Below are positions 1 to 41,076 of a DNA stretch of 64,000 nucleotides, in pieces. Below the pieces are notes generated by a model. It did no database searches and was not told the origin of the DNA. It saw nothing but the letters and a program-made list of their open reading frames with translations. Numbering within the stretch: the first letter of the stretch is position 1; every line of letters starts with the position of its first letter. A program made the position numbers and the translations under genes. This DNA comes from an uncultured Fibrobacteraceae bacterium (lineage in GTDB: Bacteria > Krumholzibacteriota > Krumholzibacteriia > LZORAL124-64-63): NCBI GenBank assembly GCA_964637835.1, contig CAZWYF010000002.1, positions 84,614 through 148,613 of the forward strand, read 5' to 3'.

Positions 1-15
1 CGCGGAGGTAGATCG

Positions 16-399
16 ATGCACGAGCGCATCCTCATCGTGGACGACGAGGCCCCGGTGGCCAGCCTGCTCGAGCAGGCCCTGCGCCAGGAGGGCTACGAGG
101 TGGCCCGCGCCGACGACGGCATGGACGCCATGAACCGCATCCAGGCCTTCGAGCCGGACGTGGTGATCATGGACGTGATGATGCCCCGCCTGGACGGCGT
201 GCAGACCACGCGCCTGCTGCGACGCAACCGCAACTACCGCGACACCGTGATCATCGCCCTCTCCGCCCGGACCGACCAGCCCGCCCGCGACGCCATGCGC
301 GAGGCCGGCGCCAACCTCTACATGCGCAAGCCGTTCACCATCGCGCGCCTGGTCGAGCACGTTCGCGAGCTGCTCGACGCGCGGCCGGTGGGTCGCTAG
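16..399 (+). CDS. Single-domain response regulator (CheY-like receiver, REC only)
   Basis: ATG at 16 with GGAGG RBS at 4-9. Receiver signature residues are intact: 'ILIVDDE', phospho-acceptor 'VVIMDVMMP', 'ALSA', 'YMRKPF'. No output domain. Stop lies 7 bp before the kinase gene. Confidence 0.85.
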   Translation: MHERILIVDDEAPVASLLEQALRQEGYEVARADDGMDAMNRIQAFEPDVVIMDVMMPRLDGVQTTRLLRRNRNYRDTVIIALSARTDQPARDAMREAGANLYMRKPFTIARLVEHVRELLDARPVGR

Positions 400-405
400 G
401 AGATC

Positions 406-3400
406 ATGGATCTGGCCGTCGGCATTCCCGCCCTGTCCCAGGCCCTGCCGCCGCTCCCGGGCGCGCTGCAGGTGGCGGCCGCCATGGCGGCCGCCGTCCT
501 GGGACTGGTGCTGGCGCTGGTGGCCCAGCTGGCCTGGCGGCAGGCTGGCGCGGCGCCCTGGCGTCGGCTCCGCTTCTGCGGCCTGGCCCTGGTGGCGGCC
601 GCGGTGCTGCGCGGTCTGGCCACCCAGGCCACGCCGGCCGCGGGGCCGTTGCTGGGGGCGGCGCTCTCGGTGCTGGACCTGGTGGTGCTGGCCCTGATCC
701 TGGTGGCGACGTTGCAGGCGGGCCCCGCCGGCCGCGGGAGAGTCGTGCTGCTGGTCGCGCCCGCGCTGGCGACGCTGTTCCTCGGCCTGCTCGGCGGCGA
801 CCCGCAGGCCTCGCTCCTGGCGCGCAGCCTGCCGGCGGCCCTGGCGCACCTGGCCACCCTGGCGCTGGTGGTGGGCGTGGCGCAGGTGGAGTTCGACGCC
901 CGCACCCGCCGCGCCTGGCGCGACGCCGAGGCCCGTGCCGACCAGCTCCTGTGCGAGCGGCAGGCCCTGCAGGGCCGCGTGGAGGCGGCCGAGGCGGCGA
1001 GCGCCGAGGCCGACGGCCGCGCGGCGCGCAGCGTGGAGCTCGCGCGCGACGCCGGCCGCCGGGCGCGCCTGCTCGAGCACCTGCTGGCCGGGACGGTGGA
1101 ACTGTCGGCCCGCCGAGATCCCCGCGACCTGCTCCAGCACGCGGTGGAACTGGTGGGATTGCTCTTCGGATTCCAGCAGGTGGCGTTGCACCAGTGGTCG
1201 GAGTCCCTGGTCGCATTCGGCGTGCAGGCCACCACCGGCTGGTCGGAGGACGATGTCCAGCGCCTGGTGCACCAGCCCATCGACCGCGCCGGCTACGACC
1301 ATCTGGTCCACCCGCGCTTCCGGGTCTCCGACAGCTTCCTCGTGCCGCCGCCGGCGGTCGCCTGGCCCCCCGGCGGCCCGGCCGACGAGGTGGCCTGGCC
1401 CGAGGGCCAGCGCCTCATCGTGCCGTTGACCGACGCCAGCGGCACCGTCCACGGCTTCCTCGACCTGCAGCATCCGGAGTCCGGCCGCGCTCCCGACCTG
1501 CTGCGCATCCGCTATCTCGAGCTCCTCGCCCGCCAGGTGGCCGCCCTGCTGGACGTGCAGGAGGTGCGCGAGCATCTGGCCACCTGCCGCGCCGAGCTGG
1601 CCCACGCCGCCGACCGCCTGCAGGCCCTGGGCGACCTGCGCAGCAACTTCGTGGCCAACGTCAGCCACGAGCTGCGCACGCCGCTCACGTCGATCATCGG
1701 CTACACCGAGATGCTCCGCGACCGCGGCGAGGACATGTCCCGCGAGGTCCGCGAGGAGTTCCTGGACGTGATCCTCGAGCAGGGCCAGCGCTTCAAGGAG
1801 ATCGTCAACGACCTCCTCGATCTCGATCGCGCCGAGGAAGAGGCCGTGCGCATGGAGCGCACCGAGTGCGACCTCGCCGCCCTGACCCGCCGCCTGGCCG
1901 AGGACTGGCGCCAGCGGGCGGAGAAGCATGGTCGCCGGCTGACCGTCGAGGCCGGCCGCACCGCGATCCTGCTGGAGGCCGACCCGGTCCTCTGCCAGCA
2001 GCTCCTCGGCCACCTGGTGGATAACGCCCTGAAGTTCACGCCGCCCGACGGCCACATCGGCGTCCAGGTGACCGAGCAGGGCACCGCCGCCCGCATCGAG
2101 GTGGAGGACAGCGGCATCGGGATCCCGGAGGAGAAGCTGCACACCATCTTCGAGCAGTTCTACCAGGTGGACGGGTCCAGCACCCGCGAGGTGGGCGGCC
2201 AGGGCATCGGCCTGGCCATCTGCCAGGACATCGTCAGCTGGCACGACGGCCGCATCTGGGCCGAGAACCTGCCCGGGGGCGGGACGCGCTTCACCGTGCT
2301 GCTGCCGCGCCGGCCGCGCGTGGTGATGCCCGATCCGCCGGCCGCGGTGGATCCCGTGCTCCAGGAGCCGCGGCTGTTCCTGCAGCGATTGATCCACTGG
2401 GTGGGCGAGAACCTGGGCGTGCGCAACGCCGTGGTGCTCACCGTCGACCACGACGACGAGCACCTCACCGCCCTGGCGGCCACCGGCCTGCCCGCCGGAC
2501 AGCTCCAGGAGCTGCGCCTGGCGCCGGGCGTGGGCCTGGCCGGACGGGTCTGGCAGGAGCGCCGCAGTTCGCTCGAGATGCCGCCGGCCGGCGACGTGCT
2601 CCTGGCCGGCGAGTCGCCCGCCCTCTGCGTACCCCTGATCCGGGACGACCGGGTGCTCGGGGTGGTGGCGGTACGCGACCGCGTCGACGGCCGGCCCCTC
2701 GGGGACGACGACCGCCTGCTGCTCGAGGCCATGGCGCCCCAGCTGGCCATGCTCCTGGCCCGCTTCGACGCCCATGACCACCTGCTGCGCGACTTCGCCG
2801 CGGTGCAGTCCTCGCTGCGCGTGACCACCCGCGTGGGCAGCCTGCCCCACGCCGACGTCGCGGGCGTCTGCCAGGCGATCTGTCTGGCCACCGCCCGGCG
2901 CCTGGGCCTGCCCGAGGCCGACGTCCGCCACCTGGCCTTCGCCCTGCAGTACTACGACGTGGGCCTGGGCAGCGTGCCGCCCTACCTCCTGGCCAAGACC
3001 GGCCCGCTCACCGATGGCGAGCGCGCGCAGCTCGAGCGCCACGTCCAGGTGGGCCTGGTGACCCTGGCGCCGCTGCAGCTGCCGCCCAAGGTGCGGCAGA
3101 TCATCCTGCACCATCACGAGAACTACGACGGCTCCGGCTACCCCAAGGGGCTGGTCGGCGAGGCCATCCCTCTCGGCTCGCGCCTGATCGCCCTGGCCGA
3201 CAGCCTGCGGGCCCTGCTGCAGCGCCGGCCCTGGCGGCCGGCGGTGCCCCTCTCGGAGGCCCTGGCGGAGATCCAGGCGCTGGCCGGCACCCGGTACTGC
3301 CCGCGACTGACCGCCGTCTTCCTGGAGGAGGCCGCCCGGCGCCGCGCCCTCATCGAGGACCTGCGCCAGCGCGCCGACGACGGCGAGGATCTCAAGCGGC

Positions 3401-3438
3401 CGGTGCCGCTGCACCCGGTGCAGCTGGTCCGCCACTGA
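406..3438 (+). CDS. Membrane-anchored hybrid sensor histidine kinase. About 5 N-terminal TM helices and an Ala/Arg-rich coiled coil, then HisKA+HATPase_c, a GAF domain and a C-terminal HD-GYP-like domain.
   Basis: H-box 'NVSHELRTPLTSIIGYTEMLRD'. N/G boxes 'LVDNALKFT', 'VEDSGIGIP', 'GGQGIGLAI'. GAF region 'VGLAGRVWQERRSSLEM...VLGVVAVRD'. HD-GYP signature 'HHHENYDGSGYPKGL' is intact, but the HD dyad reads 'YDVGL' instead of 'HDIGK'. Confidence 0.8.
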   Translation: MDLAVGIPALSQALPPLPGALQVAAAMAAAVLGLVLALVAQLAWRQAGAAPWRRLRFCGLALVAAAVLRGLATQATPAAGPLLGAALSVLDLVVLALILVATLQAGPAGRGRVVLLVAPALATLFLGLLGGDPQASLLARSLPAALAHLATLALVVGVAQVEFDARTRRAWRDAEARADQLLCERQALQGRVEAAEAASAEADGRAARSVELARDAGRRARLLEHLLAGTVELSARRDPRDLLQHAVELVGLLFGFQQVALHQWSESLVAFGVQATTGWSEDDVQRLVHQPIDRAGYDHLVHPRFRVSDSFLVPPPAVAWPPGGPADEVAWPEGQRLIVPLTDASGTVHGFLDLQHPESGRAPDLLRIRYLELLARQVAALLDVQEVREHLATCRAELAHAADRLQALGDLRSNFVANVSHELRTPLTSIIGYTEMLRDRGEDMSREVREEFLDVILEQGQRFKEIVNDLLDLDRAEEEAVRMERTECDLAALTRRLAEDWRQRAEKHGRRLTVEAGRTAILLEADPVLCQQLLGHLVDNALKFTPPDGHIGVQVTEQGTAARIEVEDSGIGIPEEKLHTIFEQFYQVDGSSTREVGGQGIGLAICQDIVSWHDGRIWAENLPGGGTRFTVLLPRRPRVVMPDPPAAVDPVLQEPRLFLQRLIHWVGENLGVRNAVVLTVDHDDEHLTALAATGLPAGQLQELRLAPGVGLAGRVWQERRSSLEMPPAGDVLLAGESPALCVPLIRDDRVLGVVAVRDRVDGRPLGDDDRLLLEAMAPQLAMLLARFDAHDHLLRDFAAVQSSLRVTTRVGSLPHADVAGVCQAICLATARRLGLPEADVRHLAFALQYYDVGLGSVPPYLLAKTGPLTDGERAQLERHVQVGLVTLAPLQLPPKVRQIILHHHENYDGSGYPKGLVGEAIPLGSRLIALADSLRALLQRRPWRPAVPLSEALAEIQALAGTRYCPRLTAVFLEEAARRRALIEDLRQRADDGEDLKRPVPLHPVQLVRH

Positions 3439-3522
3439 TCGGACTCAAGCGACGCTCCCGGACGCCGATCAGGGCGTCGAGAGGAGATCGCCCAGCGACC
3501 CCGCGCCCCGGAGGCGAACGAC

Positions 3523-3894
3523 GTGCAGAAGATCCTGGTCTGCGATGACGATCCGCACATCCGCAACATCATCGACTTCGGCCTGGAGGCCGAGGGTTTC
3601 CAGGTGCTCGTGGGCGCCGACGGGCCGCAGGCCCTGACCCTGGCCCGCAGCGAGCATCCGGACCTGGTGATCCTCGACGTGATGATGCCGGGCTCGGACG
3701 GCCTCGAGGTCTGCCGGACCCTGAAGCAGGACCCGGCCACCAGCCAGATCCCCGTGCTGCTGCTCACCGCGCGCGCGGGCAAGGCCGATCGTGATCTCGG
3801 CCTGGCCGCCGGCGCCGACGACTACATCACCAAGCCGTTCAGCCCGCCGCGCCTGGTGGAGAAGGTGCAGAGCGTGCTCGGCGTCCGCCCCTGA
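3523..3894 (+). CDS. Single-domain response regulator (REC only)
   Basis: GTG start at 3523 with GGAGG 8 nt upstream. 'ILVCDDD', 'LVILDVMMPGSDG', 'LLTAR', 'YITKPF'. Confidence 0.85.
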   Translation: MQKILVCDDDPHIRNIIDFGLEAEGFQVLVGADGPQALTLARSEHPDLVILDVMMPGSDGLEVCRTLKQDPATSQIPVLLLTARAGKADRDLGLAAGADDYITKPFSPPRLVEKVQSVLGVRP

Positions 3895-4006
3895 ACCCCC
3901 CGGCGGCGCCGGCCGCCGGGAGGCCACCGGCGTCGAACCGCGGCGCGACGCGACCCTGGCGGTCGTGCCGCGCCGCCGCTTGTCCGGCGCCCCGCCCGCC
4001 GCTACC

Positions 4007-6112
4007 ATGCCCCGACCGAACCTCGCCGCCCCGTCCGCTCGACGGGGCGGCCGTCCCCGTCCCCGCGAGGTGGTCGTGGAGCGCCTGCTGGTCGACGTCG
4101 CCCTGCCCGTGCCCCTGACCGGCCCCTTCACCTACCGCTGGACCCCGGCGGTGGCGGGGGGCGTGCCGGAGGCCGGCGACCTGGTGCGGGCGCCCTTCGG
4201 GCGGCGGCGGGGCCTGATCGGGCTGGTGGAATCGGTGCGCGAGGATCCCGAGGCCGTCACCACGGTGGGCGGCACGCCGCTGCGCGATCTCGTGGCCGTG
4301 CTGCCGCCGGCGTACCGTCTGGACACGGCGCGCCGGGCCCTGGCCGCCTGGCTGGCCGGGTACTACGCGGTACCCCTCGGCGAGGTGGTCCCGCTGTTCC
4401 ATCCCCCGAAGCCGGAGACCCGCGGCCGTCGGTCGCGCCTCGAGATCCCGGCCTTTCCCCTGCAGGAGTCGCCGGACGTGCCCGATCCCACGCCGGCCCA
4501 GGCCCGCGTGATCGCGGCGGCGGCGGAGCTGCTGGCCGCCGGGCGGTTCGGCTCGCTCCTGGTGCACGGGGTGACCGGCAGCGGCAAGACCGAGGTCTTC
4601 CTGCGCGTCATCGCCGACGCCCTGGACCGGGGGCGGGGCGCGCTCTACCTGTTGCCCGAGATCGCGCTGACGCCCCAGACCCTCGCGCGCATCGCCGCGC
4701 GCTTCGGCGACCGTGCGGCGGCCATCCACAGCGGCCTGTCCGCGGGGGAGCGCTGCCGGGTCCACGAGGCGGCCGCCGCGGGGGAGATCCAGGTGGTGGT
4801 GGGGCCCCGCTCGGCCCTCTTCGCGCCGGTGCGCGATCTGGGCGTGGTGGTGGTGGACGAGGAGCACGAGACCAGCTACAAGCAGGACGAGAAGCCCCGC
4901 TACCATGCGCGCGACGTGGCCCTGGTGAGGGGTCGTCAGGCCGGGGCGGTGGTGCTGCTGGGCTCGGCCACGCCGGACCTGACGAGCTGGTCGCGGGCGC
5001 GCGAGGGCAAGCACCAGCTGCACGTGCTGGCCGACCGGGTGGGCGGCGCCGACCTGCCGCGGATCGAGCTCATCGACCTGCGGGGCGAGGCGCCGCAGGA
5101 CGGCTTCAGCGAGCCGCTGCTCGAGGCGGTGGCCGAGACGGTGGCCGCGGGCCGGCAGGTGATCCTCTACCACAACCGCCGGGGCTTCGCCCGCCAGCTG
5201 CAGTGCCGCGACTGCGGCGTGGTGGTGATGTGCCCCCACTGCGACATCGGCCTGACCTGGCACCTGCGTCCTCGCCGCCTGCTCTGCCACTACTGCGGCC
5301 ACGCCCGCGAGGTGCCGGCGGCCTGTCCGGAGTGCCGGGCGGAGGCGTTCCTGCCCGCCGGCGGGGGGACCGAGAAGACCGAACTGGTGCTGCGGGCCAC
5401 CCTGCCGGAGGCGACCATCCTGCGGCTCGATCACGACACCACCCGCCGGCGGGGCAGCCACGCCCGCATCCTCACGCAGTTCGCCGCCGGGAAGGCCCAG
5501 ATCCTGGTGGGAACCCAGATGGTGGCCAAGGGGCACCACTTCCCCGGCGTGGCGCTGGTGGGAGTCCTGGCGGCCGACGATGGCCTCTCGCTGCCGGACT
5601 ATCGCGCGGCCGAGCGGGTGTTCCAGCTGCTGACCCAGGTGGCCGGCCGGGCGGGACGCCGTGACGCGGGTCAGGTGCTGCTGCAGACCTGGCAGCCCGA
5701 GCACCCGGTGATCCTGGCCGCCGCCGACCATGACTACGCCGGCTTCGCCATGGCCGAGAGCGCGCACCGGCGGCGGGCGGGCTATCCGCCCTTCCAGCGC
5801 CTGATCCGGCTGGGTGTGACCGGTCCACGGCAGGCCGACACCGCGCGGGCGGCGGCCCAGCTCGCCGCCGCGGTCGAACGGCAGCTGGGTGGTCGCACGA
5901 AGGCGGGCGCCGGCGACGGCGGGCTGGAGGTCCTGGGCCCGGCACCCGCCGTCTTCGCCCGGCTGCAGGGGCGCTACCGCCAGCAACTCCTCCTGAAGGG
6001 GACCCTCGACCGGGGGCAGAAGGCCTGGCTCGCCCGCTGCGCGCAGGCGCTCCGGGAGGCGCACCGCGGCCTGGACGTGGCCCTCGACGTCGATCCGGCC
6101 GGACTGTTCTGA
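4007..6112 (+). CDS. priA: Primosomal protein N' (PriA replication-restart helicase)
   Basis: Walker A 'GVTGSGKTEV', DEAH-like 'VVDEEHETSYKQDE', Cys4 zinc-binding 'CRDCGVVVMCPHCD...CHYCGH...CPECRA'. The six-frame ORF begins at 3791 and overlaps the REC gene; ATG at 4007 precedes the conserved PriA N-terminus 'VERLLVDVALPVPL'. Start is uncertain. Confidence 0.85.
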   Translation: MPRPNLAAPSARRGGRPRPREVVVERLLVDVALPVPLTGPFTYRWTPAVAGGVPEAGDLVRAPFGRRRGLIGLVESVREDPEAVTTVGGTPLRDLVAVLPPAYRLDTARRALAAWLAGYYAVPLGEVVPLFHPPKPETRGRRSRLEIPAFPLQESPDVPDPTPAQARVIAAAAELLAAGRFGSLLVHGVTGSGKTEVFLRVIADALDRGRGALYLLPEIALTPQTLARIAARFGDRAAAIHSGLSAGERCRVHEAAAAGEIQVVVGPRSALFAPVRDLGVVVVDEEHETSYKQDEKPRYHARDVALVRGRQAGAVVLLGSATPDLTSWSRAREGKHQLHVLADRVGGADLPRIELIDLRGEAPQDGFSEPLLEAVAETVAAGRQVILYHNRRGFARQLQCRDCGVVVMCPHCDIGLTWHLRPRRLLCHYCGHAREVPAACPECRAEAFLPAGGGTEKTELVLRATLPEATILRLDHDTTRRRGSHARILTQFAAGKAQILVGTQMVAKGHHFPGVALVGVLAADDGLSLPDYRAAERVFQLLTQVAGRAGRRDAGQVLLQTWQPEHPVILAAADHDYAGFAMAESAHRRRAGYPPFQRLIRLGVTGPRQADTARAAAQLAAAVERQLGGRTKAGAGDGGLEVLGPAPAVFARLQGRYRQQLLLKGTLDRGQKAWLARCAQALREAHRGLDVALDVDPAGLF

Positions 6113-6344
6113 TCCTGATTTCGCGGGGCCCGTAACCCGTTCTCGCGCGATGGGCTGCCATCACGAGGGGGCTTCCGGGGAACGGTTCGCAGCAGCGCCG
6201 GGCCACCGGTACGAAAATTGATCCACGGTTTCGTGAGGTTCACGATGTATGCTTGAGCGGTGCCCGCTGCCCGTTCCGCGGCGCGGCCGCGTGCAGCCTG
6301 CCTGCCACGCGCCGCCGCCCGTTTCCGTGCCGAGGAGGCCGACC

Positions 6345-9300
6345 ATGACCCGCCGTCCGTCGCCGCGCGCCGCCGCGCGCCCGATCCTGCTGCTGCTGCT
6401 CGCCGCCAGCCTGCTGTCCCTGGCGGCCGCCACGGCCCTCGCCGAGCAGACCTACACGCGCGGCTTCGTCCCCCCGGAGAACTGGGAACGGATCCTCGAG
6501 GAGCGCCGCGTCCTCTACCCGCCGAACAAGGATCCGCTGCCCACCCACTGGGACTGGCGCGCCCACGAGGGCGTGACCCCGCCCAAGGACCAGGGCAGCT
6601 GCGGCTCCTGCTGGGCGTTCGCCGCCGCGGGCGAGATGGAGGCCAAGATCCGCATCGAGTACGGCAAGGTGCTGGACCTCTCCGAGCAGCAGATCATCTC
6701 CTGCAACCCGTACGGTTCCGGCTGCAACGGTGGCTGGGCCGGCTCGGCCTACTACGTCTTCATGCATCATGGCGGGGTCATGGAGCATTGCATGCCCTAC
6801 GAGGGCAGCGACGACGTGCCCTGCGCCCAGGACGACTACCTCCAGTTCACCACCATGGATACCTGGCATTCCCTCGCCAACGACGTCCAGCAGATCAAGA
6901 CCGCGGTCTACAACGACGGGCCGGTCTGCACCGCGGTGGACGCCAACGACGCCTGGGACGACTATGGCGGTGGCGTCATCGACGCCCAGGGCTACGGCAC
7001 CAACCACCTGGTGCTCATCGTCGGCTGGGACGACCGCATGGGCGCCGATGGCGCCTGGATCGTGAAGAACTCCTGGGGCGCGGGCTGGGGCGAGGCGGGC
7101 TACTGCTACGTGGCCTACGGCGCCACCAGCATCGGCACCGGCGTCACCTCCCTGAGCTACACGCCGCCGCCGGTGGACGTGGGCGTCTCCTCGCCGCCAG
7201 CCGACGTCCAGGTCTTCGGCGACGCCCCCCTGACCATCACCTGGAACACCTCCGGCGAGCCGGTCGATCAGGTGGATCTCTACTACGGCACCGTGGGCAA
7301 CTGCCCCTCCGAGCCCATCGCCCTGGGCCTGCCCAACACCGGCAGCTACGAGTGGGTGGTGCCCAACGTCACCACCGACCGCGCCACGGTGCTGGTCCTG
7401 CCCAGCGAGGGGACCGAGCAGGGGTTCGGCTTCAGCGAGGGCGAGTTCGCCATCCTCGGTCACCAGACGCGGTACGTCTCGCCCTCCGGCGGGGACATCC
7501 CGCCCTACGACGCCCCCGACCGGGCGGCGCGCTCCATCGTCGACGCCGTCCTCGCCGGCGCCGGCCGCGACACCATCATGATCGCCGCCGGCGACTACCT
7601 CGAGAGCTCCATCACGGTGAACTCGCCCGCGCATCTCATCGGCGGCTGGAGCGCCGATTTCGCCACCCACGATCCCGACCTGCACGTCACCCGCCTGCGC
7701 GGCGTCTACGGCACCTTGCGCTTCAGTTCCGCGGCCGGCGACTATTGCGGGGTCAGCGGCATCACCTTCCACGACTGCCAGGCGGCGGTGAGCACCACGC
7801 CGGTCAACGGCCGCCATGGCGCGGCCATCCTGGCCCTCGATGCCTCGCCCGTGATCACCGATTGCGTCTTCATCGGCAACCGGGCCGATCCCGGCATGAG
7901 CCTCGGCTGGGGCGGGGCGGTCCTGGCGCACGGCGGCTCGCCGGTGATCCGGGACTGCGAGTTCATCGGCAACATCGGCAGCCACGGCGGCGCCCTGGCG
8001 CTGTCGTCCTGCGACGGCGCGCTGGTGGAGGACTGCACCTTCCTGGCCAACAGCACCAGCGACAGCTCCACTGCGTACGTCGGCGGCGCCATCCACGTGT
8101 CCGGCGGCGAGGCCACCCTGCGCCGTGCCGAACTGCGGGCGGGCGGCTCGGGACGGGGCGGCGGTCTGGCGATCACCGGCGGCGCCCAGGTGGTGGCCGA
8201 GGACCTGGTCCTCGCCGACAACCGGGCTCTGGTGGCGGGCGCCGGCGTCCACGTGGACCAGGCGGCCAGTCTGCAGCTGATCCGCGGCGAGGTGGTGGCC
8301 AACGCCCTGCACACGGGCAGCGGCAACGGCGGCGGCCTGGCGGCCAGCGAGGCGACCCTGACCCTCGTGGGCGTCCAGTTCCGCGACAACACGGCGCCGG
8401 GAATCGGCGGCGGCATCTACGCCCAGGGCCTGGCCGGCGGCAGGCTGGAGAACTGCCTGCTCCGCGGCAACACGGGTCAGACCGGCGGCGGGGTCTTCGT
8501 GGCCGCGAGCGGGCCCTACCAGGTGCGCAACAACGTGGTGGTGGGCAACCTGGGCGGCGGCCTGTTCGCCGGCGGGCCGGAAATGGTGAGCGATTACAAC
8601 CTGGCCCACGACAACGCGGGCGGCGATTTCCAGTCGGCCCCCGGGGAGCACGACCACGTGGCGGCGCCCGTCTTCGCCGACGCGGCCGGGGGCGACTTCG
8701 CGCCCGGCCTGCACTCGCCGCTCCTCGACAGCGGCGATCCGGCCACCGGCGAGGACTGGGACGGCGGGGCCGTGGACCGCGGGCCGTACGGCGGTCCGCT
8801 GGCCGTGCCCAGCGGACCGGGCCGCGTCACCGGGCTGGCGGGCTCGCAGCAGGATGGCGTGGTGAGCCTGAGCTGGGACGCGAGCCCCGACGCCGTCGCC
8901 TACGCCGTCTACCGCGACACCGCGGCGGTGTTCCTGCCCGGGCTGACCAGCCTCTGCGCCCTGGTCGACGCGCCCGCGACCTCCTGCGATGATGCGCCGC
9001 CCGCGGGGGCGGACTGGTACTACCTGGTCGGCGCGCTGGCGGCCGATGGCCGCGCCGGCGGCTTCAGTGCGCGATACGAGGCCGGTGGCACCAGCGTGCC
9101 GGTGGCGGACGGGGGCCTGCCGCGGGCCCTGGCCATCGGCAGCGTCGCGCCCAATCCCTTCAATCCGCGCACCGTGGTGCGGTTCGCGGTCCCGGACGCC
9201 GGGCCGGTGCGCCTGCAGGTCTACGACCTGCGGGGCCGTCTGGTGCGGACGCTCCATGCCGGGCGCCTGGAGGCCGGCAGCCACACCGTCGCCTGGGACG

Positions 9301-9401
9301 GCAGCGACGCGCGGGGGCGCGCCGCGGCGGCGGGCGTCTACTGCGTGCGCCTGGATGACGGGCAGCGCGCGGTGACGGTCAAGGCGGTGCTGGCCAAGTA
9401 G
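6345..9401 (+). CDS. Secreted papain-like (C1A) cysteine protease fused to right-handed beta-helix repeats, ending in a T9SS type-A sorting domain
   Basis: ATG 6345 preceded by GAGGAGG. Signal peptide 'RPILLLLLAASLLSLAAATALA'. Catalytic Cys 'QGSCGSCWAF', His 'NHLVLIVGW', Asn 'KNSWGAGWGEAGY'. Repeated 'GGA..V.GG' beta-helix units. T9SS tail 'NPFNPRTVVRFAVPDAGPVRLQVYDLRGRLVRTL...GVYCVRL'. Confidence 0.88.
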   Translation: MTRRPSPRAAARPILLLLLAASLLSLAAATALAEQTYTRGFVPPENWERILEERRVLYPPNKDPLPTHWDWRAHEGVTPPKDQGSCGSCWAFAAAGEMEAKIRIEYGKVLDLSEQQIISCNPYGSGCNGGWAGSAYYVFMHHGGVMEHCMPYEGSDDVPCAQDDYLQFTTMDTWHSLANDVQQIKTAVYNDGPVCTAVDANDAWDDYGGGVIDAQGYGTNHLVLIVGWDDRMGADGAWIVKNSWGAGWGEAGYCYVAYGATSIGTGVTSLSYTPPPVDVGVSSPPADVQVFGDAPLTITWNTSGEPVDQVDLYYGTVGNCPSEPIALGLPNTGSYEWVVPNVTTDRATVLVLPSEGTEQGFGFSEGEFAILGHQTRYVSPSGGDIPPYDAPDRAARSIVDAVLAGAGRDTIMIAAGDYLESSITVNSPAHLIGGWSADFATHDPDLHVTRLRGVYGTLRFSSAAGDYCGVSGITFHDCQAAVSTTPVNGRHGAAILALDASPVITDCVFIGNRADPGMSLGWGGAVLAHGGSPVIRDCEFIGNIGSHGGALALSSCDGALVEDCTFLANSTSDSSTAYVGGAIHVSGGEATLRRAELRAGGSGRGGGLAITGGAQVVAEDLVLADNRALVAGAGVHVDQAASLQLIRGEVVANALHTGSGNGGGLAASEATLTLVGVQFRDNTAPGIGGGIYAQGLAGGRLENCLLRGNTGQTGGGVFVAASGPYQVRNNVVVGNLGGGLFAGGPEMVSDYNLAHDNAGGDFQSAPGEHDHVAAPVFADAAGGDFAPGLHSPLLDSGDPATGEDWDGGAVDRGPYGGPLAVPSGPGRVTGLAGSQQDGVVSLSWDASPDAVAYAVYRDTAAVFLPGLTSLCALVDAPATSCDDAPPAGADWYYLVGALAADGRAGGFSARYEAGGTSVPVADGGLPRALAIGSVAPNPFNPRTVVRFAVPDAGPVRLQVYDLRGRLVRTLHAGRLEAGSHTVAWDGSDARGRAAAAGVYCVRLDDGQRAVTVKAVLAK

Positions 9402-9432
9402 AAGCGCGACAGCGGCCTGCGAAACCCTACCC

Positions 9433-9465
9433 GGGGCGTCGTATATTGCGGCGCCCCTTTTACTT
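9433..9465 (+). terminator. Intrinsic terminator-like hairpin after the protease gene
   Basis: GGGGCGTCG-tatattg-CGGCGCCCC (9-bp stem with one G.U pair) followed by 'TTTTACTT'. Confidence 0.55.
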
Positions 9466-9565
9466 GTGTCGCTCCGGGCTGCTACCTACCTTTGCGCGGA
9501 CCGAAAGCCTCCGCTACCGCACGACGCTCTCCGGATGCGCCGAAACTCCACAAGGAAGGTGACTG

Positions 9566-10147
9566 ATGGCTGCTGAGATGGTCGAGATCCGCTGGCATGC
9601 GCGCGGCGGCCAGGGCGCCAAGACCGCGGCCATGTTCGTGGCCCAGGCCGTGCTCGTGAAGGGCAAGTACGGCCAGGGATTCCCCGAGTACGGGCCCGAG
9701 CGGCGCGGCGCGCCCATGCGCGGCTTCACCCGCATCGCCGATGCGCCCATCCGCCGGCACTGCGGCATCGAGAACCCCGGGATCGTGATCGTGCTCGACC
9801 CCACGCTGCTGGACTCCCCGGCGGCCGGCGTCACCGCCGGTACCGACAAGGACACGGTGTTCCTGATCAACACCACGCTCTCGCCCGCGGAGATCAAGAA
9901 GAAGCTGAACGTGCCGGGCGCCCAGATCTACACCGTGGACGCCACCCGCATCGCCCTCGAGGCGTTCGGCAAGCCCATTCCGAACATGCCCATGACCGGC
10001 GCGCTGATCGCGGCCCGGCCCATCCTCGAGCTGGATGAGCTGAAGGCGGCCATGCAGGAGAAGTTCAGCGAGAAGTTCTCCCAGGCCGTGGTCGACGGGA
10101 ACCTGCGCGCGGTCGAGACCGCATACAACGAGGTGGTGAGCGAATGA
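9566..10147 (+). CDS. porC: Pyruvate/2-oxoacid:ferredoxin oxidoreductase, gamma subunit
   Basis: 'RWHARGGQGAKTAAMFVAQA' gamma-subunit signature. RBS AAGGAAGG. First gene of a 4-gene gamma-delta-alpha-beta cluster with overlapping or tight junctions. Confidence 0.85.
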   Translation: MAAEMVEIRWHARGGQGAKTAAMFVAQAVLVKGKYGQGFPEYGPERRGAPMRGFTRIADAPIRRHCGIENPGIVIVLDPTLLDSPAAGVTAGTDKDTVFLINTTLSPAEIKKKLNVPGAQIYTVDATRIALEAFGKPIPNMPMTGALIAARPILELDELKAAMQEKFSEKFSQAVVDGNLRAVETAYNEVVSE

Positions 10148-10452
10148 GTTTCAAGCCTACCAGGGACCTCGCCGAGGCCGGGATCATCACCGAGGCCGGC
10201 AACGCCGCGGACTTCAAGACCGGCGACTGGCGCACCTACGTGCCGGAGTTCTACTCGGAGAACTGCATCCAGTGCATGTTCTGCTGGGTCTACTGCCCCG
10301 ACGCCGCCATCAAGGTGGACCTCAGCGGCGAGAAGCCGCAGGTGGTCGGGATCGATCTGGAGCACTGCAAGGGCTGCGGCATCTGCGCCCACGAGTGCCC
10401 GCCCGCCAAGAAGGGCAAGGCCGCCCTGGTCATGGTCCGCGAAGAGAAGTAA
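10144..10452 (+). CDS. porD: 2-oxoacid:ferredoxin oxidoreductase delta subunit (2x[4Fe-4S] ferredoxin)
   Basis: Two CxxCxxCxxxCP motifs ('CIQCMFCWVYCP', 'CKGCGICAHECP'). ATGA overlap with porC. Confidence 0.85.
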   Translation: MSFKPTRDLAEAGIITEAGNAADFKTGDWRTYVPEFYSENCIQCMFCWVYCPDAAIKVDLSGEKPQVVGIDLEHCKGCGICAHECPPAKKGKAALVMVREEK

Positions 10453-10465
10453 GGAGGCGAGGACG

Positions 10466-11659
10466 ATGAGCAAGATCGCACCGCAGGAACTCACTGCGCT
10501 GAGCGGGAACGAGGCCGTCGCCTATGCCTTCCGGCAGACGCGGCCCCACGTGGCCTCGGCCTTCCCCATCACGCCGCAGACCGAGATGATGCACAAGTAC
10601 GCCGAGTTCGTGGCCAACGGCGAGGTGGACACCGAGATGATCCTCGTCGAGAGCGAGCACTCGGCCATGTCCGCCGCCGTCGGCTCGGCCGCCGCCGGCG
10701 CCCGCACGATCACCGCCACCAGCTCGGCCGGGTTCGCGCTGATGTGGGAGATCGTCTACATCGCCGCCTCGCTGCGGCTGCCCATCCAGATGGCCCTGGT
10801 CAACCGGGCGCTGTCGGGCAACATCAACATCCACTGCGACCACAGCGATTCCATGGGCGGCCGCGACGCCGGCTGGATCCACCACTTCTGCGAGAACGCG
10901 CAGGAGGCCTACGACAGCTCGCTGATCAACTTCCGTATCGGCGAGCACATGGACGTCCGCCTGCCGGCGATGGTGAACTACGACGGCTTCATCATCTCCC
11001 ACAAGGAAGACGCCCTGCACATGCTGAGCGACGATGCGGCCTACGACTTCGTGGGCCCCTACAAGCACAAGTACACGCTGCTCGACCCGGCCAGCCCCAT
11101 CACCGTGGGCCCGCTGGACCTGACCGACTACTACTTCGAGCACAAGTTCAGCCAGCTCGAGGCGTATCCCCGCGTCTTCGACGTGGCCCAGCAGGTCTTC
11201 GACGAGTACGCCGACCTCACCGGCCGCCGCTATGGCTTCTGGGAGAGCTACAAGCTCGACGATGCCGACCTGGTCATGGTGATCCTCGGTTCCAGCGCGG
11301 GCACCGCCAAGGACGTGATCGACGAGTACCGCGAGAAGGGCGTCAAGGTGGGCCTGCTGAAGCTGCGCATGTTCCGCCCCTTCCCGGCCGAGATGCTGCG
11401 CCCGGTGCTCGAGGGTCGCAAGGCCGTCGCCGTCCTGGACCGTTCGGCCAGCTTCGGTGGCTGGGGCGGGCCCGTGTTCAACGAGATCCGCAGCGCCCTC
11501 TACGGCACCAGCAACCCGTCGCCGGTGCACAACTGGATCTACGGCCTGGGTGGCCGCGACTTCGACCTCAAGCACGCGGCCGAGGTGATCGACGCGATGC
11601 AGAAGATCGCCGCCGGCAAGAAGGTCGACACCCTCAACCTGCTCGGCTGCCGGGCGTAG
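10466..11659 (+). CDS. porA: 2-oxoacid:ferredoxin oxidoreductase alpha subunit
   Basis: Typical PorA N-terminus 'LSGNEAVAYAFRQTRPHVASAFPITPQTEMM'. Positioned third in the operon. Confidence 0.85.
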   Translation: MSKIAPQELTALSGNEAVAYAFRQTRPHVASAFPITPQTEMMHKYAEFVANGEVDTEMILVESEHSAMSAAVGSAAAGARTITATSSAGFALMWEIVYIAASLRLPIQMALVNRALSGNINIHCDHSDSMGGRDAGWIHHFCENAQEAYDSSLINFRIGEHMDVRLPAMVNYDGFIISHKEDALHMLSDDAAYDFVGPYKHKYTLLDPASPITVGPLDLTDYYFEHKFSQLEAYPRVFDVAQQVFDEYADLTGRRYGFWESYKLDDADLVMVILGSSAGTAKDVIDEYREKGVKVGLLKLRMFRPFPAEMLRPVLEGRKAVAVLDRSASFGGWGGPVFNEIRSALYGTSNPSPVHNWIYGLGGRDFDLKHAAEVIDAMQKIAAGKKVDTLNLLGCRA

Positions 11660-11673
11660 CGAAGGAGGACGAC

Positions 11674-12627
11674 ATGGCCACGAGCCTCAAGGACCTCGTC
11701 CAGAACGAAGACCTCCTCGTCGGAGGGCACCGCGCCTGCGCCGGCTGCATGGGGGCGACCATCCTGCGCCAGATCATGCTGGTCGCGGGCAAGAACACCG
11801 TGGTCGGCGGGGCCACCGGTTGCATGGAGGTGGTCACCACCATCTTCCCGTACACCGCCTGGAAGACCTCGTTCATCCACAGCGCGTTCGAGAACTCGGC
11901 GGCCACGGTCAGCGGCGTGGAGACCGCCTACCGTGCCCTCAAGAAGCGGGGCGATCTGCCGGAGGCGGCCGACCAGGCCGACGGCATGAACTTCATCGCC
12001 TTCGGCGGCGACGGCGGCACCTACGACATCGGCCTGCAGTCGCTGTCCGGGGCCTTCGAGCGCGGGCACGACATGGTGTACGTCTGCTACGACAACAACG
12101 CGTACATGAACACCGGCATCCAGCGCTCCAGCGCCACGCCGTTCGGCGCCCATACCTCCACCGCGCCCGCGGGCAAGGTGAAGCAGGGCAAGGAGCAGGA
12201 GCGCAAGGACCTGACCCGCATCATGGCCGCGCACAACATCCCGTACGTGGGCCAGACCACGCCCTTCCACTGGAAGGACATGGCCACCAAGGTGCAGAAG
12301 GCGCTGAGCTGCGACGGCCCGGCGTTCCTCAACATCCTGATGCCCTGCACCGTGGGCTGGGGCTTCGCGCCGGAGCTGGGCGCCGAGGTGGCCAAGCAGG
12401 CGGTGGAGACCAACTTCTGGCCGCTGTTCGAGATCGAGAACGGCAAGTACACCATCAACAAGAAGCCCAAGGACCCGACGCCCATCGTCGAGTGGCTCGA
12501 GCCGCAGGCGCGGTTCCGCCACCTCTTCAGGCCGGGCAACGAGCCCATGCTCGAGCACGCCCAGCAGTGGGTGGATGCGCAGTGGGAGAAGCTGCTGCGC
12601 GACGAGGCGGCCACGGCCGAACTCTAG
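11674..12627 (+). CDS. porB: 2-oxoacid:ferredoxin oxidoreductase beta subunit (TPP-binding)
   Basis: ATG 11674 with GAAGGAGGA RBS. 'HRACAGCMGATI' Cys cluster and 'GGDGGTYDIG' TPP motif. Sits within the longer, frame-shifted-looking ORF 10744-12627 in the track. Confidence 0.85.
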   Translation: MATSLKDLVQNEDLLVGGHRACAGCMGATILRQIMLVAGKNTVVGGATGCMEVVTTIFPYTAWKTSFIHSAFENSAATVSGVETAYRALKKRGDLPEAADQADGMNFIAFGGDGGTYDIGLQSLSGAFERGHDMVYVCYDNNAYMNTGIQRSSATPFGAHTSTAPAGKVKQGKEQERKDLTRIMAAHNIPYVGQTTPFHWKDMATKVQKALSCDGPAFLNILMPCTVGWGFAPELGAEVAKQAVETNFWPLFEIENGKYTINKKPKDPTPIVEWLEPQARFRHLFRPGNEPMLEHAQQWVDAQWEKLLRDEAATAEL

Positions 12628-37775: not shown

Positions 37776-39247
37776 GGATCCTGATGATCACCGCGGAGAT
37801 GGCGCCGCTGGTGAAGATCGGCGGCCTGGCCGACGTCACCGGGGCGCTGCCGGCCGCCCTGGCCGCCCACGGCCACGAGGTGCGGGTGGTGCTGCCGCTC
37901 TACGGCCATCTCGATCGCCGGGCGCAGGACCTGCAACCGCGCCCGGAGACCGGGCCGTTGCCCCTGCGCGTGGGGCAGGCCGTGCACACGGTACGCTTCT
38001 GGTCCTGGCCGGCGGCCCCGGCGGGGGTCCAGGTGGACCTGGTGGAGTGCCGGGACCTGTTCGGTCGTCCCGGGGTCTATGCCGATCCCGCAGGCGCGGT
38101 GTTCGGCGACACGCTCGAGCGGGCCAGCTGCCTCTGCGCCGCGGCCCTGGCCCTGCCCGAGCTGCTCGACTGGCCGGTGGACGTGGTCCACGCCCACGAC
38201 GTGCACGCCGCGCTGGCCCCCCACTACCGCGCCCACTGGTACGCCGGCCGCGAGCTGCCCGGCCCGGCGGCCACCATGCTGACCATCCACAACCTGGCCC
38301 ACCAGCAGCTCGAGCCGGCGGGCGCCATCGTCCGCGTGGGGCTGCCCCGCGAGCTGGCCGAGTATCCCGGTCCCTTCGAGTTCCACGGCCACTGCAACCT
38401 GCTGAAGGCCGGCATCCTGGCCGCCGACCACGTCAACACCGTCAGCCCCACCTACGCGCGGGAGGTGGTGGCCGACGCCACCGCCGGCTGTGGCCTGCAC
38501 GGCGTGCTCGCCGCGCGCGGCGAGGCCTTCGACGGCATCGTCAACGGTGTGGACACCCGCACCTGGGACCCCTCGCGCGACCGCCACCTGCCGGCGCGCT
38601 ACCACGCCCAGGACCTGGTGGGCAAGTCCGTCTGCCGGTCGCGACTGCTCCGTGACGCCGGCCTGGAGGAGGATCAGCGCCCGCTGCTGGGCGTGGTCAG
38701 CCGCCTGGTGCCGCAGAAGGGCATCGACCTGGTGTGCGACCTGCTGGATCGCCTGGTGGACGGGGGCTTCTCCCTGCTGGTCCTGGGGACGGGCGACGCG
38801 CCCCTGCACGAGCAGCTCGCCGCCGCGGCGGCCCGGCATCCGGGGCGGGTGGCCTTCCGTCCGGAGTTCAGCGAGTCGTGGGCCCATCGCATCTACGCCG
38901 GCAGCGACCTCTTCCTCATGCCCAGCCGCTTCGAGCCCTGCGGCCTGGGCCAGCTCTACGCCCTGCGCTACGGGACCTTGCCCGTGGTGCGCCGCACCGG
39001 CGGCCTGGCCGACACCATCGCCGACGTCGACACCGCCGGTGGCACCGGCTTCGTGTTCGACGAGCCCACGCCCGACGCCCTCTGGCAGGCCCTGGTGCGC
39101 GCCCGCGCCACCCGGGAGGACACCGTCCGCTGGCGCGCCATGCAGCGCCGCGGCATGCAGCGCGACGTCTCCTGGGAGATCAGCGCCGCCGCCTACGCCG
39201 CGCGCTACCGCCGGCTGGTCCCCGTCGCCGCGGAGGTGGCGCCATGA
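37772..39247 (+). CDS. glgA: Glycogen synthase (ADP-glucose type, GT5)
   Basis: 'MRILMITAEMAPLVKIGGLADVTGALP' canonical GlgA N-terminus. C-terminal 'SRFEPCGL' block. Confidence 0.92.
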   Translation: MRILMITAEMAPLVKIGGLADVTGALPAALAAHGHEVRVVLPLYGHLDRRAQDLQPRPETGPLPLRVGQAVHTVRFWSWPAAPAGVQVDLVECRDLFGRPGVYADPAGAVFGDTLERASCLCAAALALPELLDWPVDVVHAHDVHAALAPHYRAHWYAGRELPGPAATMLTIHNLAHQQLEPAGAIVRVGLPRELAEYPGPFEFHGHCNLLKAGILAADHVNTVSPTYAREVVADATAGCGLHGVLAARGEAFDGIVNGVDTRTWDPSRDRHLPARYHAQDLVGKSVCRSRLLRDAGLEEDQRPLLGVVSRLVPQKGIDLVCDLLDRLVDGGFSLLVLGTGDAPLHEQLAAAAARHPGRVAFRPEFSESWAHRIYAGSDLFLMPSRFEPCGLGQLYALRYGTLPVVRRTGGLADTIADVDTAGGTGFVFDEPTPDALWQALVRARATREDTVRWRAMQRRGMQRDVSWEISAAAYAARYRRLVPVAAEVAP

Positions 39248-40998
39248 ATGATCCCGTGACCCTCGATGAGCTCGCCCACCGCAGCCTGGCCGCCACCCAG
39301 ACGCCCCTGCTGGTGGTGGACGCCCGCTGGCGCGTGCTCCTGGCCAGCACCGGCGCCGGCCGTCTCTACGCCGAGGAGCCGGCGGACCTGGTGGGCCGAT
39401 CCCTGGAGGAGCTGGTCACCAGCACCGACCCGTTCGCAGGGTGCGACGACCCCGGCTGTCCCGACCGCGGGTGCGTCCGGCAGCTGGACCTGTGCGTGGG
39501 CGACGCCACCGTGGCCGCCGAGCTGCAGTGCGAGGCCTTCCGCGACGGCCAGGGACGGCTCCATCGCCTCCTGCTGATCCACGACGCCAGCGAGCTGGCC
39601 GCCCGCGACGCCATGCGTGCCGCCCGCCTGGCCAAGCTCAACCTGCTGAACCAGGTCTCGGAGGCCCTGTACGGCGCGCAGCTCTCCTTGCCCCAGGTGC
39701 TCGAGTCGGTGCTCATCGCCATGACCGCCGGCCAGGGCCTGCGCTTCAACCGCGCCTTCCTGCTGCTGGTGGACGAGCGCACCCGTTGCTTGCGCGGGGA
39801 GATCGCCATCGGCCCGAGCAGCCGCGAGGAGGCCGAGCGCATCTGGCGCGACCTGGCCGATCAGCCCACCGACCTCTACGAGATGATGACCAGCTACGAC
39901 CTCTCCCTCCGGGAGACCGACGTGGCGGTCAACAACATCGTCCGGCAGCTCTCCGTCTCCCTGGACGAGGGCCAGCACGTGCTCATCCGCGCGCTGCACG
40001 GTCGCCGCACGGTCCTGGTCACCGAGACCGACGACGGTCCGGGCACCGCCGACGTCCGTCGCTGGCTCGGCGTGGGCCGCTTCGCCGTGGCGCCCCTGGC
40101 CACCCGCCGCGGCGCCATCGGCGTGCTCATCGCCGACAATGCCATCAGCGGGCTGGAGATCACGGAGATGGACCTGGAGTTCCTCCAGCTCTTCGCCAAC
40201 CAGTCGGCCAACGCCATCGAGTCCTCCCGGCTGACCGAGGAGCTGGCGCGCAAGGTCCTGGACCTGCGCAAGGCCCAGCAGAAGCAGAAGGAGGACCAGC
40301 AGACCCTGCTGCGCATGGAGCGCCTGTCGGTCATGGGCGAGACCTCGGCCATCGTGGCCCACGAGCTGCGCAATCCCCTGGTGGCCATCGGCGGTTTCGC
40401 CCGGGCGCTGCTGCGCAGCCTGGAGGAGGACGACGCCAACCGGCAATACGCCCAGATCATCTCCGAGGAGGTGGCGCGCCTCGAGCGCATCATCCACGAC
40501 CTCCTCGACTTCATCCGGCCCCAGAAGATGATGCGTCGCAGCGTGGCTCCGGATACCATCGTGCAAGAAGTGGCACGAAAGATGCAGCCGACCCTGGACC
40601 ACGGGTCGGTGGCACTGCACCTCGACCTGCGGGCCGGGCCGGCGGAGGTCCACTGCCATCCCGGCGAGATCCAGCAGGTACTGCAGAACCTGGTGTTGAA
40701 CGCCGTCCAGGCCCAGCCGGACGGCGGGCGCATCCGCCTGGCGAGCCGGTCGCTCGAGGGCGGCGTGCTCATCCAGGTGGCGGATGACGGACCGGGGCTG
40801 GCCAGGGACGTGGCGGACAAGATGTTCTCGCCGTTCTTCACCACCAAGTCCGCGGGCTCGGGTCTGGGACTGACCATCTGCGCCCAGATCATCAAGGCCC
40901 ACGGCGGGGTGCTGCGGGGCGAGAACCTCGCCGACGGCGGCGCCAGCTTCAGCTTCATCCTGCCGCGACCAAAGCTGGAACCCGACCAGGGCGAGTAG
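39244..40998 (+). CDS. Cytoplasmic sensor histidine kinase (Cys-rich PAS-like region, GAF, HisKA, HATPase_c) embedded in the glycogen operon
   Basis: ATGA overlap with the glgA stop. No TM segment. 'FAGCDDPGCPDRGCVRQLDLCVGD...LQC' (5 Cys within 33 aa). GAF 'GRFAVAPLATRRGAIGVLIADN'. H-box 'VAHELRNPLVAIGGFARAL'. G-boxes 'VADDGPGL', 'GSGLGLTIC'. Confidence 0.85.
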   Translation: MNDPVTLDELAHRSLAATQTPLLVVDARWRVLLASTGAGRLYAEEPADLVGRSLEELVTSTDPFAGCDDPGCPDRGCVRQLDLCVGDATVAAELQCEAFRDGQGRLHRLLLIHDASELAARDAMRAARLAKLNLLNQVSEALYGAQLSLPQVLESVLIAMTAGQGLRFNRAFLLLVDERTRCLRGEIAIGPSSREEAERIWRDLADQPTDLYEMMTSYDLSLRETDVAVNNIVRQLSVSLDEGQHVLIRALHGRRTVLVTETDDGPGTADVRRWLGVGRFAVAPLATRRGAIGVLIADNAISGLEITEMDLEFLQLFANQSANAIESSRLTEELARKVLDLRKAQQKQKEDQQTLLRMERLSVMGETSAIVAHELRNPLVAIGGFARALLRSLEEDDANRQYAQIISEEVARLERIIHDLLDFIRPQKMMRRSVAPDTIVQEVARKMQPTLDHGSVALHLDLRAGPAEVHCHPGEIQQVLQNLVLNAVQAQPDGGRIRLASRSLEGGVLIQVADDGPGLARDVADKMFSPFFTTKSAGSGLGLTICAQIIKAHGGVLRGENLADGGASFSFILPRPKLEPDQGE

Positions 40999-41076
40999 AG
41001 TTTTCCTGGAACCGCAGCCGGCCATTTGCTAGCCTGCGAGTGGAGATCCTGGAACCCGCACGAAGGAGGGTGTTCC

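Follow-up and report, generated by a model that had tools for sequence, protein, structure and literature searches.

A membrane histidine kinase of uncultured Krumholzibacteriota ending in a YD-GYP domain, a candidate cyclic-dinucleotide receptor

The DNA analysed here (the window, 64,000 nucleotides (nt), positions 84,614 to 148,613 of the forward strand of contig CAZWYF010000002.1 in assembly GCA_964637835.1) comes from an uncultured bacterium of the Krumholzibacteriota, and it opens with three signalling genes whose central member, the histidine kinase HK2, is the subject of this report. REC1 (16..399, +) encodes a single-domain receiver of 127 amino acids (aa; Response_reg, Pfam E 9.4e-30), HK2 (406..3438, +) encodes a membrane histidine kinase of 1010 aa with a C-terminal module of a GAF and an HD-GYP-like domain, called YD-GYP below, and REC2 (3523..3894, +), which starts with GTG, encodes a second single-domain receiver of 123 aa (Response_reg, Pfam E 9.5e-31). 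An earlier interpretation made from the letters alone (the sequence-only reading) had described two intact receivers around such a kinase, and the three open reading frames (ORFs), together with the Response_reg matches (E ~1e-30) and complete acid pockets of the two small proteins, bear this out.

A GGAGG or AGGAG ribosome-binding site lies 5-8 nt before each of the three starts (the GGAGG of REC1 is 8 nt before its ATG, and the GTG of REC2 is also preceded by GGAGG). The gaps are short, 6 nt between REC1 and HK2 and 84 nt between HK2 and REC2, and a scan of them found no promoter-like or terminator-like sites, an arrangement that fits co-transcription of the three genes. Both receivers are CheY-like: the Response_reg match is full-length, there is no output domain, and the phospho-acceptor quintet (DD/D/T-or-S/K) is intact, as D9, D10, D53, S83 and K105 in REC1 and D8, D9, D52, T82 and K104 in REC2. 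A further receiver belongs to the REC-GGDDF protein encoded upstream of the window; REC2 is 48% identical to it, helix alpha-1 included, and REC1 39%, while REC1 and REC2 share 36% identity with each other.

HK2 is 100% identical to database entry P0001, and runs from a transmembrane region through GAF, HisKA, HATPase_c and a second GAF to the HD-GYP domain (Pfam, with transmembrane segments from a Kyte-Doolittle scan). The N-terminal membrane region (aa 1-165; 406..900, +) has short loops and no Pfam match, and its 4-5 hydrophobic segments within aa 20-165 are also present in orthologues. A GAF-like input domain follows (aa ~226-399; 1081..1602, +), recognized from a stretch of Pfam GAF/GAF_2 similarity N-terminal of HisKA; the same position is matched by a local gaf hidden Markov model (HMM) in distant family members. 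The kinase core (1639..2313, +) comprises HisKA (aa 412-478; Pfam E 9e-22), with the phospho-accepting H421 within SHELRTP, and HATPase_c (aa 526-636; Pfam E 2e-30), with N540 in the N box, D568/G570/G572 in G1, F582/F585 in the F box and G598/G600/G602 in G2. The H, N, G1, F and G2 boxes of a class I (HisKA-type) sensor kinase are thus all in place, and H421 and the other boxes are invariant across an alignment of 37 homologues. The HisKA domain also contains HExxT, the HisKA phosphatase motif. HK2 is probably an active kinase of the HisKA type and, on account of this motif, likely bifunctional as kinase and phosphatase. NCBIfam models matched HK2 only in part (PhoR, PnpS and WalK), and across the three proteins only generic PhoR, WalK or PhoB-like cores were recognized, all below the equivalog cut-offs.

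Beyond the ATPase domain, the sequence-only reading had placed a GAF and an HD-GYP domain instead of a receiver, and the Pfam domain order of HK2 agrees. No Response_reg match lies within the polypeptide, so HK2 is not a hybrid kinase; nor is it of the RpfG type, as the order is HisKA, HATPase_c, GAF, HD-GYP with no N-terminal receiver before the HD-GYP domain. The C-terminal GAF (aa 657-784; 2374..2757, +; Pfam GAF_2 E 1e-17) leads into a helical stalk of 43 residues (aa 767-809), which is a long helix at residues 128-170 of an AlphaFold2 (AF2) model. The YD-GYP domain itself (aa 800-985; 2803..3360, +; Pfam HD_5) has an HD-GYP fold with a partial set of metal ligands. A profile search, the check that had been proposed for this assignment, returned a strong HD_5 match at aa 822-967 (E 1.2e-34; 120 bits, where the cut-off is 27.2), together with Pfam HD at E 4e-7. 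In the Protein Data Bank the domain matches V-cGAP3 (5z7c), PA4781 (4r8z), DvhD (9rbz/9rc0) and PmGH (4mcw) at E values of 1e-17 to 1e-22. The predicted local distance difference test score (pLDDT) of the model exceeds 90 across the domain, and target-normalised template modelling scores in Foldseek were 0.73 for 9rbz and 0.74 for 4r8z. The best fold match of the whole tail is PmGH of Persephonella marina (4MCW/4MDZ; E 1e-16 over 345-355 columns), a two-domain protein with the same layout of GAF, helical stalk and HD-GYP as the C-terminal 370 aa of HK2; the GAF fold of the model was also matched to other GAF structures.

We scored the active site in an alignment with 16 canonical HD-GYP proteins, using PmGH numbering and checking the positions against the AlphaFold model. 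The HDxGK motif is absent: aa 850-854 are YDVGL, just as the sequence-only reading had it, with Y850-D851 (2953..2958, +) in place of the H221-D222 dyad and L854 (2965-2967, +) in place of K225. The other signature, HHExxDGxGYP, had been called intact, and it is present exactly, as HHHENYDGSGYP (aa 902-913; 3109..3144, +), and invariant in the family. Five of the seven canonical binuclear-type metal ligands are in place, namely D222 (D851), H250 (H879), H276/H277 (H903/H904) and D305 (D932); V818 stands at the H189 position and Y850 at that of H221, so the alignment of ligands that had been suggested leaves the set incomplete. The third-metal ligand E185 is replaced as well (P814), and is also missing from many canonical HD-GYPs, which make up the binuclear group. 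The degeneracy had been described as the change from HD to YD. That change is real and extends further, because the auxiliary catalytic residues D183 and K225 are Ser and Leu (S812 and L854) and the structural, essential D308 is Arg (R935). HK2 therefore carries complete neither the seven-ligand set nor the D183/K225/D308 set of a competent phosphodiesterase. By contrast, every position through which PmGH contacts cyclic di-GMP (c-di-GMP) is retained: K235 as K864, Y285 of the GYP motif as Y912, A309/L310 as A936/L937, R314 as R941 and, by a conservative change, K317 as R944. These are the residues of a receptor of the DvhD type, and the stretch holding D932, R935, A936/L937 and R941-P-W-R944 lies at 3199..3237 (+).

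Mutational data exist for the positions that have changed. In PmGH, the substitutions H189A, H221A, K225A, D183A and D308A each abolish activity, while mutations of substrate contacts cause no substantial drop (Bellini et al., PMC4159591). With all five essential residues replaced and the contact positions kept, we consider it likely that the YD-GYP domain has lost normal phosphodiesterase activity, and we infer that binding has been retained. The sequence-only reading had predicted both, and both are still argued from residues and by analogy. A PmGH subunit with only the G-site iron binds intact c-di-GMP, and does not turn it over, via Y285, R314, K317, K235, A309 and L310 (PMC4159591), and R314xxK317 is the base-contact motif (Bellini et al., PMC4159591; Galperin & Chou). 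The likeness to PmGH has its bounds: PmGH works on its own as an active enzyme and has eight ligands and a tri-iron centre, whereas the tail of HK2 sits behind a complete histidine kinase and is missing the equivalents of E185, H189, H221, K225, D183 and D308.

The first His of the domain had been reported as not evident. This holds for the canonical column: H189 stands at the start of helix alpha-6 in PmGH (PMC4159591), and in the model of HK2 the equivalent helix begins at V818. To say that the first His is simply absent is too simple, as H815 adjoins that column, three residues upstream, in a low-confidence loop just before the helix, and is conserved in most Krumholzibacteriota orthologues.

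A full-length search with HK2 returned about 37 proteins of identical domain layout, the most distant at 28% identity; one of the proteins is named Candidatus Krumholzibacteriia. Invariant in their alignment are D851, H879, H903, H904, E905, D908, G909, G911, Y912, P913, D932, R941 and R944, and Y850, K864 and A936 are each at least 90% conserved. The YD-GYP domain has the highest mean pairwise identity among orthologues of any part of HK2 (0.83), followed by HisKA (0.76), HATPase (0.75), the two GAFs (0.61-0.63) and, lowest, the membrane region (0.45). Close relatives of HK2 among species-representative genomes are all from Krumholzibacteriota.

The fusion reaches beyond this set. An earlier search with the domain alone had recovered mostly short fragments and no full-length kinases, which made it unfit as a census of architectures, and we replaced it with an exhaustive profile search of 1.84 billion representatives at 50% identity, inspecting the best 150 matches. 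Among these matches there are at least 75 clusters (at 50% identity) of collinear kinase-(GAF)-HD-GYP fusions. Across these 75, no cluster has Lys at the K225 position (Met in 51, Leu in 19, and Val, Ile or Ala in 3), the H189 position is His in one cluster and another residue in 74, and the dyad reads HD in 40, YD in 27, RD in 3, FD in 1, HE in 1 and is unreadable in 3. The D222, H250, H276, H277, Y285, D305 and R314 positions, on the other hand, are near-universal. Fused members occur in uncultured Nitrospiraceae and in a Syntrophotalea metagenome-assembled genome, where YD is combined with Ile or Leu at the K225 position; all traceable members come from uncultured lineages. The names of cluster members carried almost no taxonomy apart from one Nitrospira sp., whose entry at NCBI is named 'GAF domain-containing protein'. 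As the fused clusters share this signature, and the unfused HD-GYPs sampled in the same genome scan are overwhelmingly HDxGK, the kinase-fused HD-GYP domains are, on residue evidence, a distinct subfamily present in at least three phyla. The YD dyad is no local oddity and is fixed in that subfamily.

Some distant members depart from the layout of HK2. One of them (P0336, at 5001-7265 of contig L089) has a receiver fused N-terminal to HisKA, HATPase_c, GAF and YD-GYP; there are no REC or GGDEF neighbours at its locus, the receiver being built into the kinase polypeptide. The GAF-HisKA-GAF-YD-GYP proteins of Nitrospiraceae and Syntrophotalea (L019 3448-5808 and L024 185-2494) have a weak HATPase_c match that falls short of the Pfam cut-off, or no match at E <=1e-4, and may be pseudokinases or phosphatase-only proteins.

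That YD reflects recent degeneration is ruled out by its family-wide fixation and by the conservation of the domain, the highest within HK2. The same observations bear on the idea that the HD-GYP part has no function left and is merely what remains, in decay, of an enzyme once fused there, for which the loss of canonical catalytic residues might speak. A remnant would hardly be the most conserved domain of its protein, show a residue pattern fixed across 75 divergent clusters from at least three phyla and give so confident a model (pLDDT >90), and we regard this explanation as effectively refuted by conservation and extremely improbable.

A more serious alternative is that the domain has stayed a phosphodiesterase but rebuilt its metal centre, in which Tyr850, His815 or both would act as ligands, so that HK2 would be a kinase joined to a hydrolase of c-di-GMP, cyclic GMP-AMP (cGAMP) or pGpG that opposes the adjacent cyclase. 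The five canonical ligands and the full HHExxDGxGYP block are invariant, which is more than the metal-free DvhD retains, and the conservation of H815 in most Krumholzibacteriota orthologues would suit a substitute ligand; moreover, HD-GYP metal sites are heterogeneous (Galperin & Chou; PMC13090378) and some RpfG-type proteins lacking H189 are reported to be active (Galperin & Chou). Yet H221, K225, D183 and D308 are all replaced non-conservatively, at positions where each Ala mutant kills PmGH activity, Lys is found at the K225 position in none of the 75 fused clusters, and H815 lies in a low-confidence loop and is absent from the distant YD members. There is also a telling relative in Pseudomonas aeruginosa: PA2572, a REC-YN-GYP protein, is enzymatically inactive yet regulatory (PMC3749722). 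Like HK2, it has Tyr for the His of the HD dyad and an intact GYP block; unlike HK2, it lacks the Asp too (YN) and acts as a response regulator instead of being fused to a kinase. We consider remodelled catalysis unlikely.

The closest model for a receptor is DvhD of Desulfovibrio vulgaris, a PAS-HD-GYP protein whose degenerate HD-GYP domain binds c-di-GMP without metal and without hydrolysis and changes the dimer of its helical stalk (PMC13090378). HK2 resembles it in sequence (E 1e-17), in fold (target-normalised score of 0.73 against 9RBZ/9RC0) and in the RxxR motif, which is RSYR in DvhD and RPWR in HK2. The two differ in that DvhD has lost both HD (SQ) and HH (MN), whereas HK2 keeps D, H, HH and D, and in that the output of DvhD is a periplasmic domain controlling a protease rather than a kinase. 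With this precedent, that of PA2572 and the retained contacts, we favour, with some reserve, a model where HK2 is a bifunctional kinase with a non-hydrolysing c-di-GMP receptor tail that would feed back on phosphotransfer.

Several observations weigh against this receptor model. The five metal ligands D851, H879, H903, H904 and D932 are retained and invariant, and since DvhD, a metal-free receptor, needs none of them, their retention in HK2 leaves room for some metal-dependent function, possibly residual catalysis. H815 could substitute for the missing first His, and RpfG-type proteins active without H189, mentioned above, point the same way. The nucleotide bound by the tail may be c-di-GMP, cGAMP or pGpG. 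The invariant metal ligands could also mean that sensing is done by the partial metal site, which would respond to iron availability, redox state or O2/NO and report its occupancy or oxidation to the kinase without any nucleotide, and the activity of diiron HD-GYP enzymes is indeed sensitive to oxidation (Galperin & Chou). Such a sensor would not require the strong conservation of the nucleotide-contact residues R941, R944, Y912 and K864, which equals or exceeds that of the metal ligands, and the synteny with a GGDEF gene described below points to a dinucleotide; a precedent was not found in the open-access literature searched, and we rate metal sensing as quite improbable.

The genomic setting of HK2 adds to this picture. 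The three genes had been taken for a self-contained module with orphan receivers, and neither description survives comparison with related contigs. The start of the window falls inside a larger conserved gene cluster. Logan contig L006, which is 99.993% identical over 13.4 kb (window position 1 is L006 position 5584), shows that in the same genome the upstream order is tsaD, the gene of the REC-GGDDF protein (328 aa; L006 2198-3184), HK1 (L006 3198-5594) and REC1. HK1 encodes a soluble paralogue of HK2 of 798 aa with HisKA, HATPase_c, GAF-like and HD_5 domains. Its signature is Ala at H189, a kept HD dyad, Met at K225 and Phe at D308. From HisKA onwards the two kinases align collinearly over their full remaining length (34% identity over 614 aa, E 1e-62), so the duplication took in the entire fused unit. 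Protein P0036 might seem to show that orthologues of HK2 keep HD, but it is the upstream paralogue HK1; P0041 has the same residue signature as P0036, with HD kept.

In other Krumholzibacteriota contigs the order yjeF, tsaD, REC-GGDEF, HK1, REC, HK2, REC, priA, C1 peptidase recurs, and where the downstream flank is present priA usually comes next after REC2 (L002 differs). A more distant relative (L087) has the YD-type kinase alone, in the order REC-GGDEF, REC, kinase, REC, priA and without HK1, which indicates that the core is of four genes and that certain lineages have gained HK1 as an additional copy; another variant of the locus reads REC-GGDEF, kinase, kinase, REC. The conserved core is REC-GGDEF, REC, kinase and REC, between tsaD and priA. 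REC1 is kept directly upstream of the YD-type kinase in relatives and REC2 downstream of it in all of them, so that both receivers are syntenic partners conserved across the phylum. The proposal that REC1 belongs only to HK1, by tandem duplication of a kinase and REC unit, is weakened by the REC-kinase-REC order around a single YD-type kinase. Wherever a Krumholzibacteriota locus extends far enough upstream, the REC-GGDEF gene is present alongside the kinase, as it is in the more distant L091.

The product of this gene has an invariant GHVGGDDF motif and a 'DID' motif, and its Pfam GGDEF match covers profile positions 5-111 of 161 only. The guanine-specifying Asn and Asp are retained and no RxxD I-site was found in the protein, with these sites defined as in PleD. 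GGDDF motifs are usually considered inactive (PMC8835794), which means that c-di-GMP may not be made within the cluster, a further point against the receptor model in its full form; GSU1937, though, is a GGDDF enzyme shown to be active (PMC8835794). Also on the negative side, neither REC nor GGDEF genes adjoin the distant members from Nitrospiraceae and Syntrophotalea, so a feedback loop would not be a property of the whole family.

The same synteny allows the YD-GYP domain to be seen as a docking module, whose GYP motif would recruit the GGDEF-type domain of the REC-GGDDF protein and so bring its receiver to the kinase without any nucleotide. In the DSF (diffusible signal factor) system of Xanthomonas, where the sensor kinase RpfC is likewise coupled to an HD-GYP domain, the GYP motif of RpfG is required to bind GGDEF proteins via their DxD motif (PMC3749722); the GYP block is invariant in the HK2 family, and the syntenic REC-GGDEF protein has its 'DID'. 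The parallel is incomplete, as RpfG's HD-GYP domain belongs to a phosphorylation-controlled response regulator (REC-HD-GYP), whereas that of HK2 is on the kinase with no receiver between. Docking leaves unexplained why the buried metal ligands and the base-contact residues R941 and R944 are invariant, and outside this phylum no GGDEF gene adjoins the members of the family; docking and the receptor model could, however, both hold. As the full explanation, we give docking little chance.

In the receptor model, HK2 would phosphorylate REC2, REC1 and, by extension, the receiver of the REC-GGDDF cyclase-like protein. Its GAF and HD-GYP tail, no longer capable of phosphodiesterase chemistry but still possessing the nucleotide pocket and some of the metal site, would act as a cyclic-dinucleotide receptor, most likely for c-di-GMP. 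On binding, the tail would shift the kinase/phosphatase balance of the HK2 dimer via the stalk, an assumption that draws on the comparable rearrangement of the stalk dimer of DvhD upon c-di-GMP binding (PMC13090378). The single-domain receivers REC1 and REC2 could serve as competing phosphate sinks or as output adaptors. A closed loop in the cluster, from kinase to receiver-cyclase to c-di-GMP and back to the kinase, is a tentative extension of this scheme. Wider still, and equally speculative, is the view that the whole kinase-fused clade ([H/Y]DxG[M/L], without H189 and K225) is a dedicated receptor that evolved from a phosphodiesterase, gates kinase output and, in Krumholzibacteriota, closes the loop of the operon. 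The kinase or kinases would then phosphorylate a GGDDF cyclase without an I-site, whose product would bind the kinase tails and give feedback or a bistable switch, with the two single-domain receivers serving as phosphate sinks. In a bolder variant, Tyr850 would ligate the remaining metal, making a new Tyr-ligated site of the HD type for sensing or for altered chemistry.

Histidine kinases with a built-in receptor for c-di-GMP are known, and in this concept HK2 is not alone. CckA binds c-di-GMP through its catalytic domain. RavS is another c-di-GMP-binding kinase (PMC6707612). SgmT of Myxococcus xanthus is a hybrid histidine kinase that has its c-di-GMP receptor in a C-terminal domain of the GGDEF type (PMC3509222); unlike the tail of HK2, that receptor is a degenerate GGDEF domain and is not derived from HD-GYP. 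At the level of the whole protein SgmT is the nearest functional counterpart of HK2, as DvhD and PA2572 are for the tail. We found no description of a kinase-HD-GYP fusion, or of an HD-GYP-derived receptor on a kinase, in the open-access literature searched. The text of the HD-GYP census of Galperin & Chou does not mention the architecture of HK2, and neither do the other reviews searched, although with at least 75 clusters it is not a one-off. Absence from the literature searched is no proof of novelty, and the HK2 family presents no new signalling principle, since both halves of the idea, a degenerate HD-GYP domain as receptor and a kinase that binds c-di-GMP, have been described before.

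Several neighbouring features of the window were also recorded. An ORF that overlaps REC2 (3791-6112, +) encodes PriA (3'BD, DEAD, Zn-ribbon and PriA_C domains). Its 3'BD begins at ORF residue 102 and the gene call on the identical contig starts at window position 4076, which implies that the first 95 codons of the ORF are probably untranslated. The next gene (6249-9401, +) encodes a secreted protein of 1050 aa with Peptidase_C1, beta-helix repeats and a C-terminal FlgD_ig-type domain, and is syntenic 3' of priA in most relatives with that flank (L001, L004, L006 and L087). At ~9566-12627 (L006 15149-18210) lies a 2-oxoacid:ferredoxin oxidoreductase set (POR gamma, 4Fe-4S ferredoxin, POR_N/PFOR_II and TPP_enzyme_C), which is consistent with an anaerobic lifestyle. 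A second histidine-kinase ORF (38656-40995, +; local kinase-core HMM E 3e-39) is directly followed by a single-domain receiver (40999-41442, +) that matches REC2 at E 3e-20. Positions 1-12000 have a G+C content of 0.66-0.77, and this very high G+C gives rise to numerous long ORFs that are spurious and overlap the true genes on either strand, such as 396-1280 (-) and 951-2024 (+).

Bacterial signalling has two dominant currencies, histidine kinases and c-di-GMP, and few direct junctions between them (CckA, SgmT and RavS) are understood. The family described here suggests that a phosphodiesterase fold has been turned, with a fixed residue signature, into what appears to be a nucleotide-sensing tail on a kinase. 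If this is true, the family would add a new receptor class to the list of c-di-GMP effectors, and a simple rule (no H189, no K225, an intact GYP motif and RxxR) could be used to re-annotate entries now labelled as HD-GYP phosphodiesterases. With its four to five genes, the cluster is compact and would likewise offer a tractable system for feedback between a phosphorelay and a second messenger. For uncultured phyla such as the Krumholzibacteriota, our analysis represents a clear and testable prediction at the level of a whole protein family.

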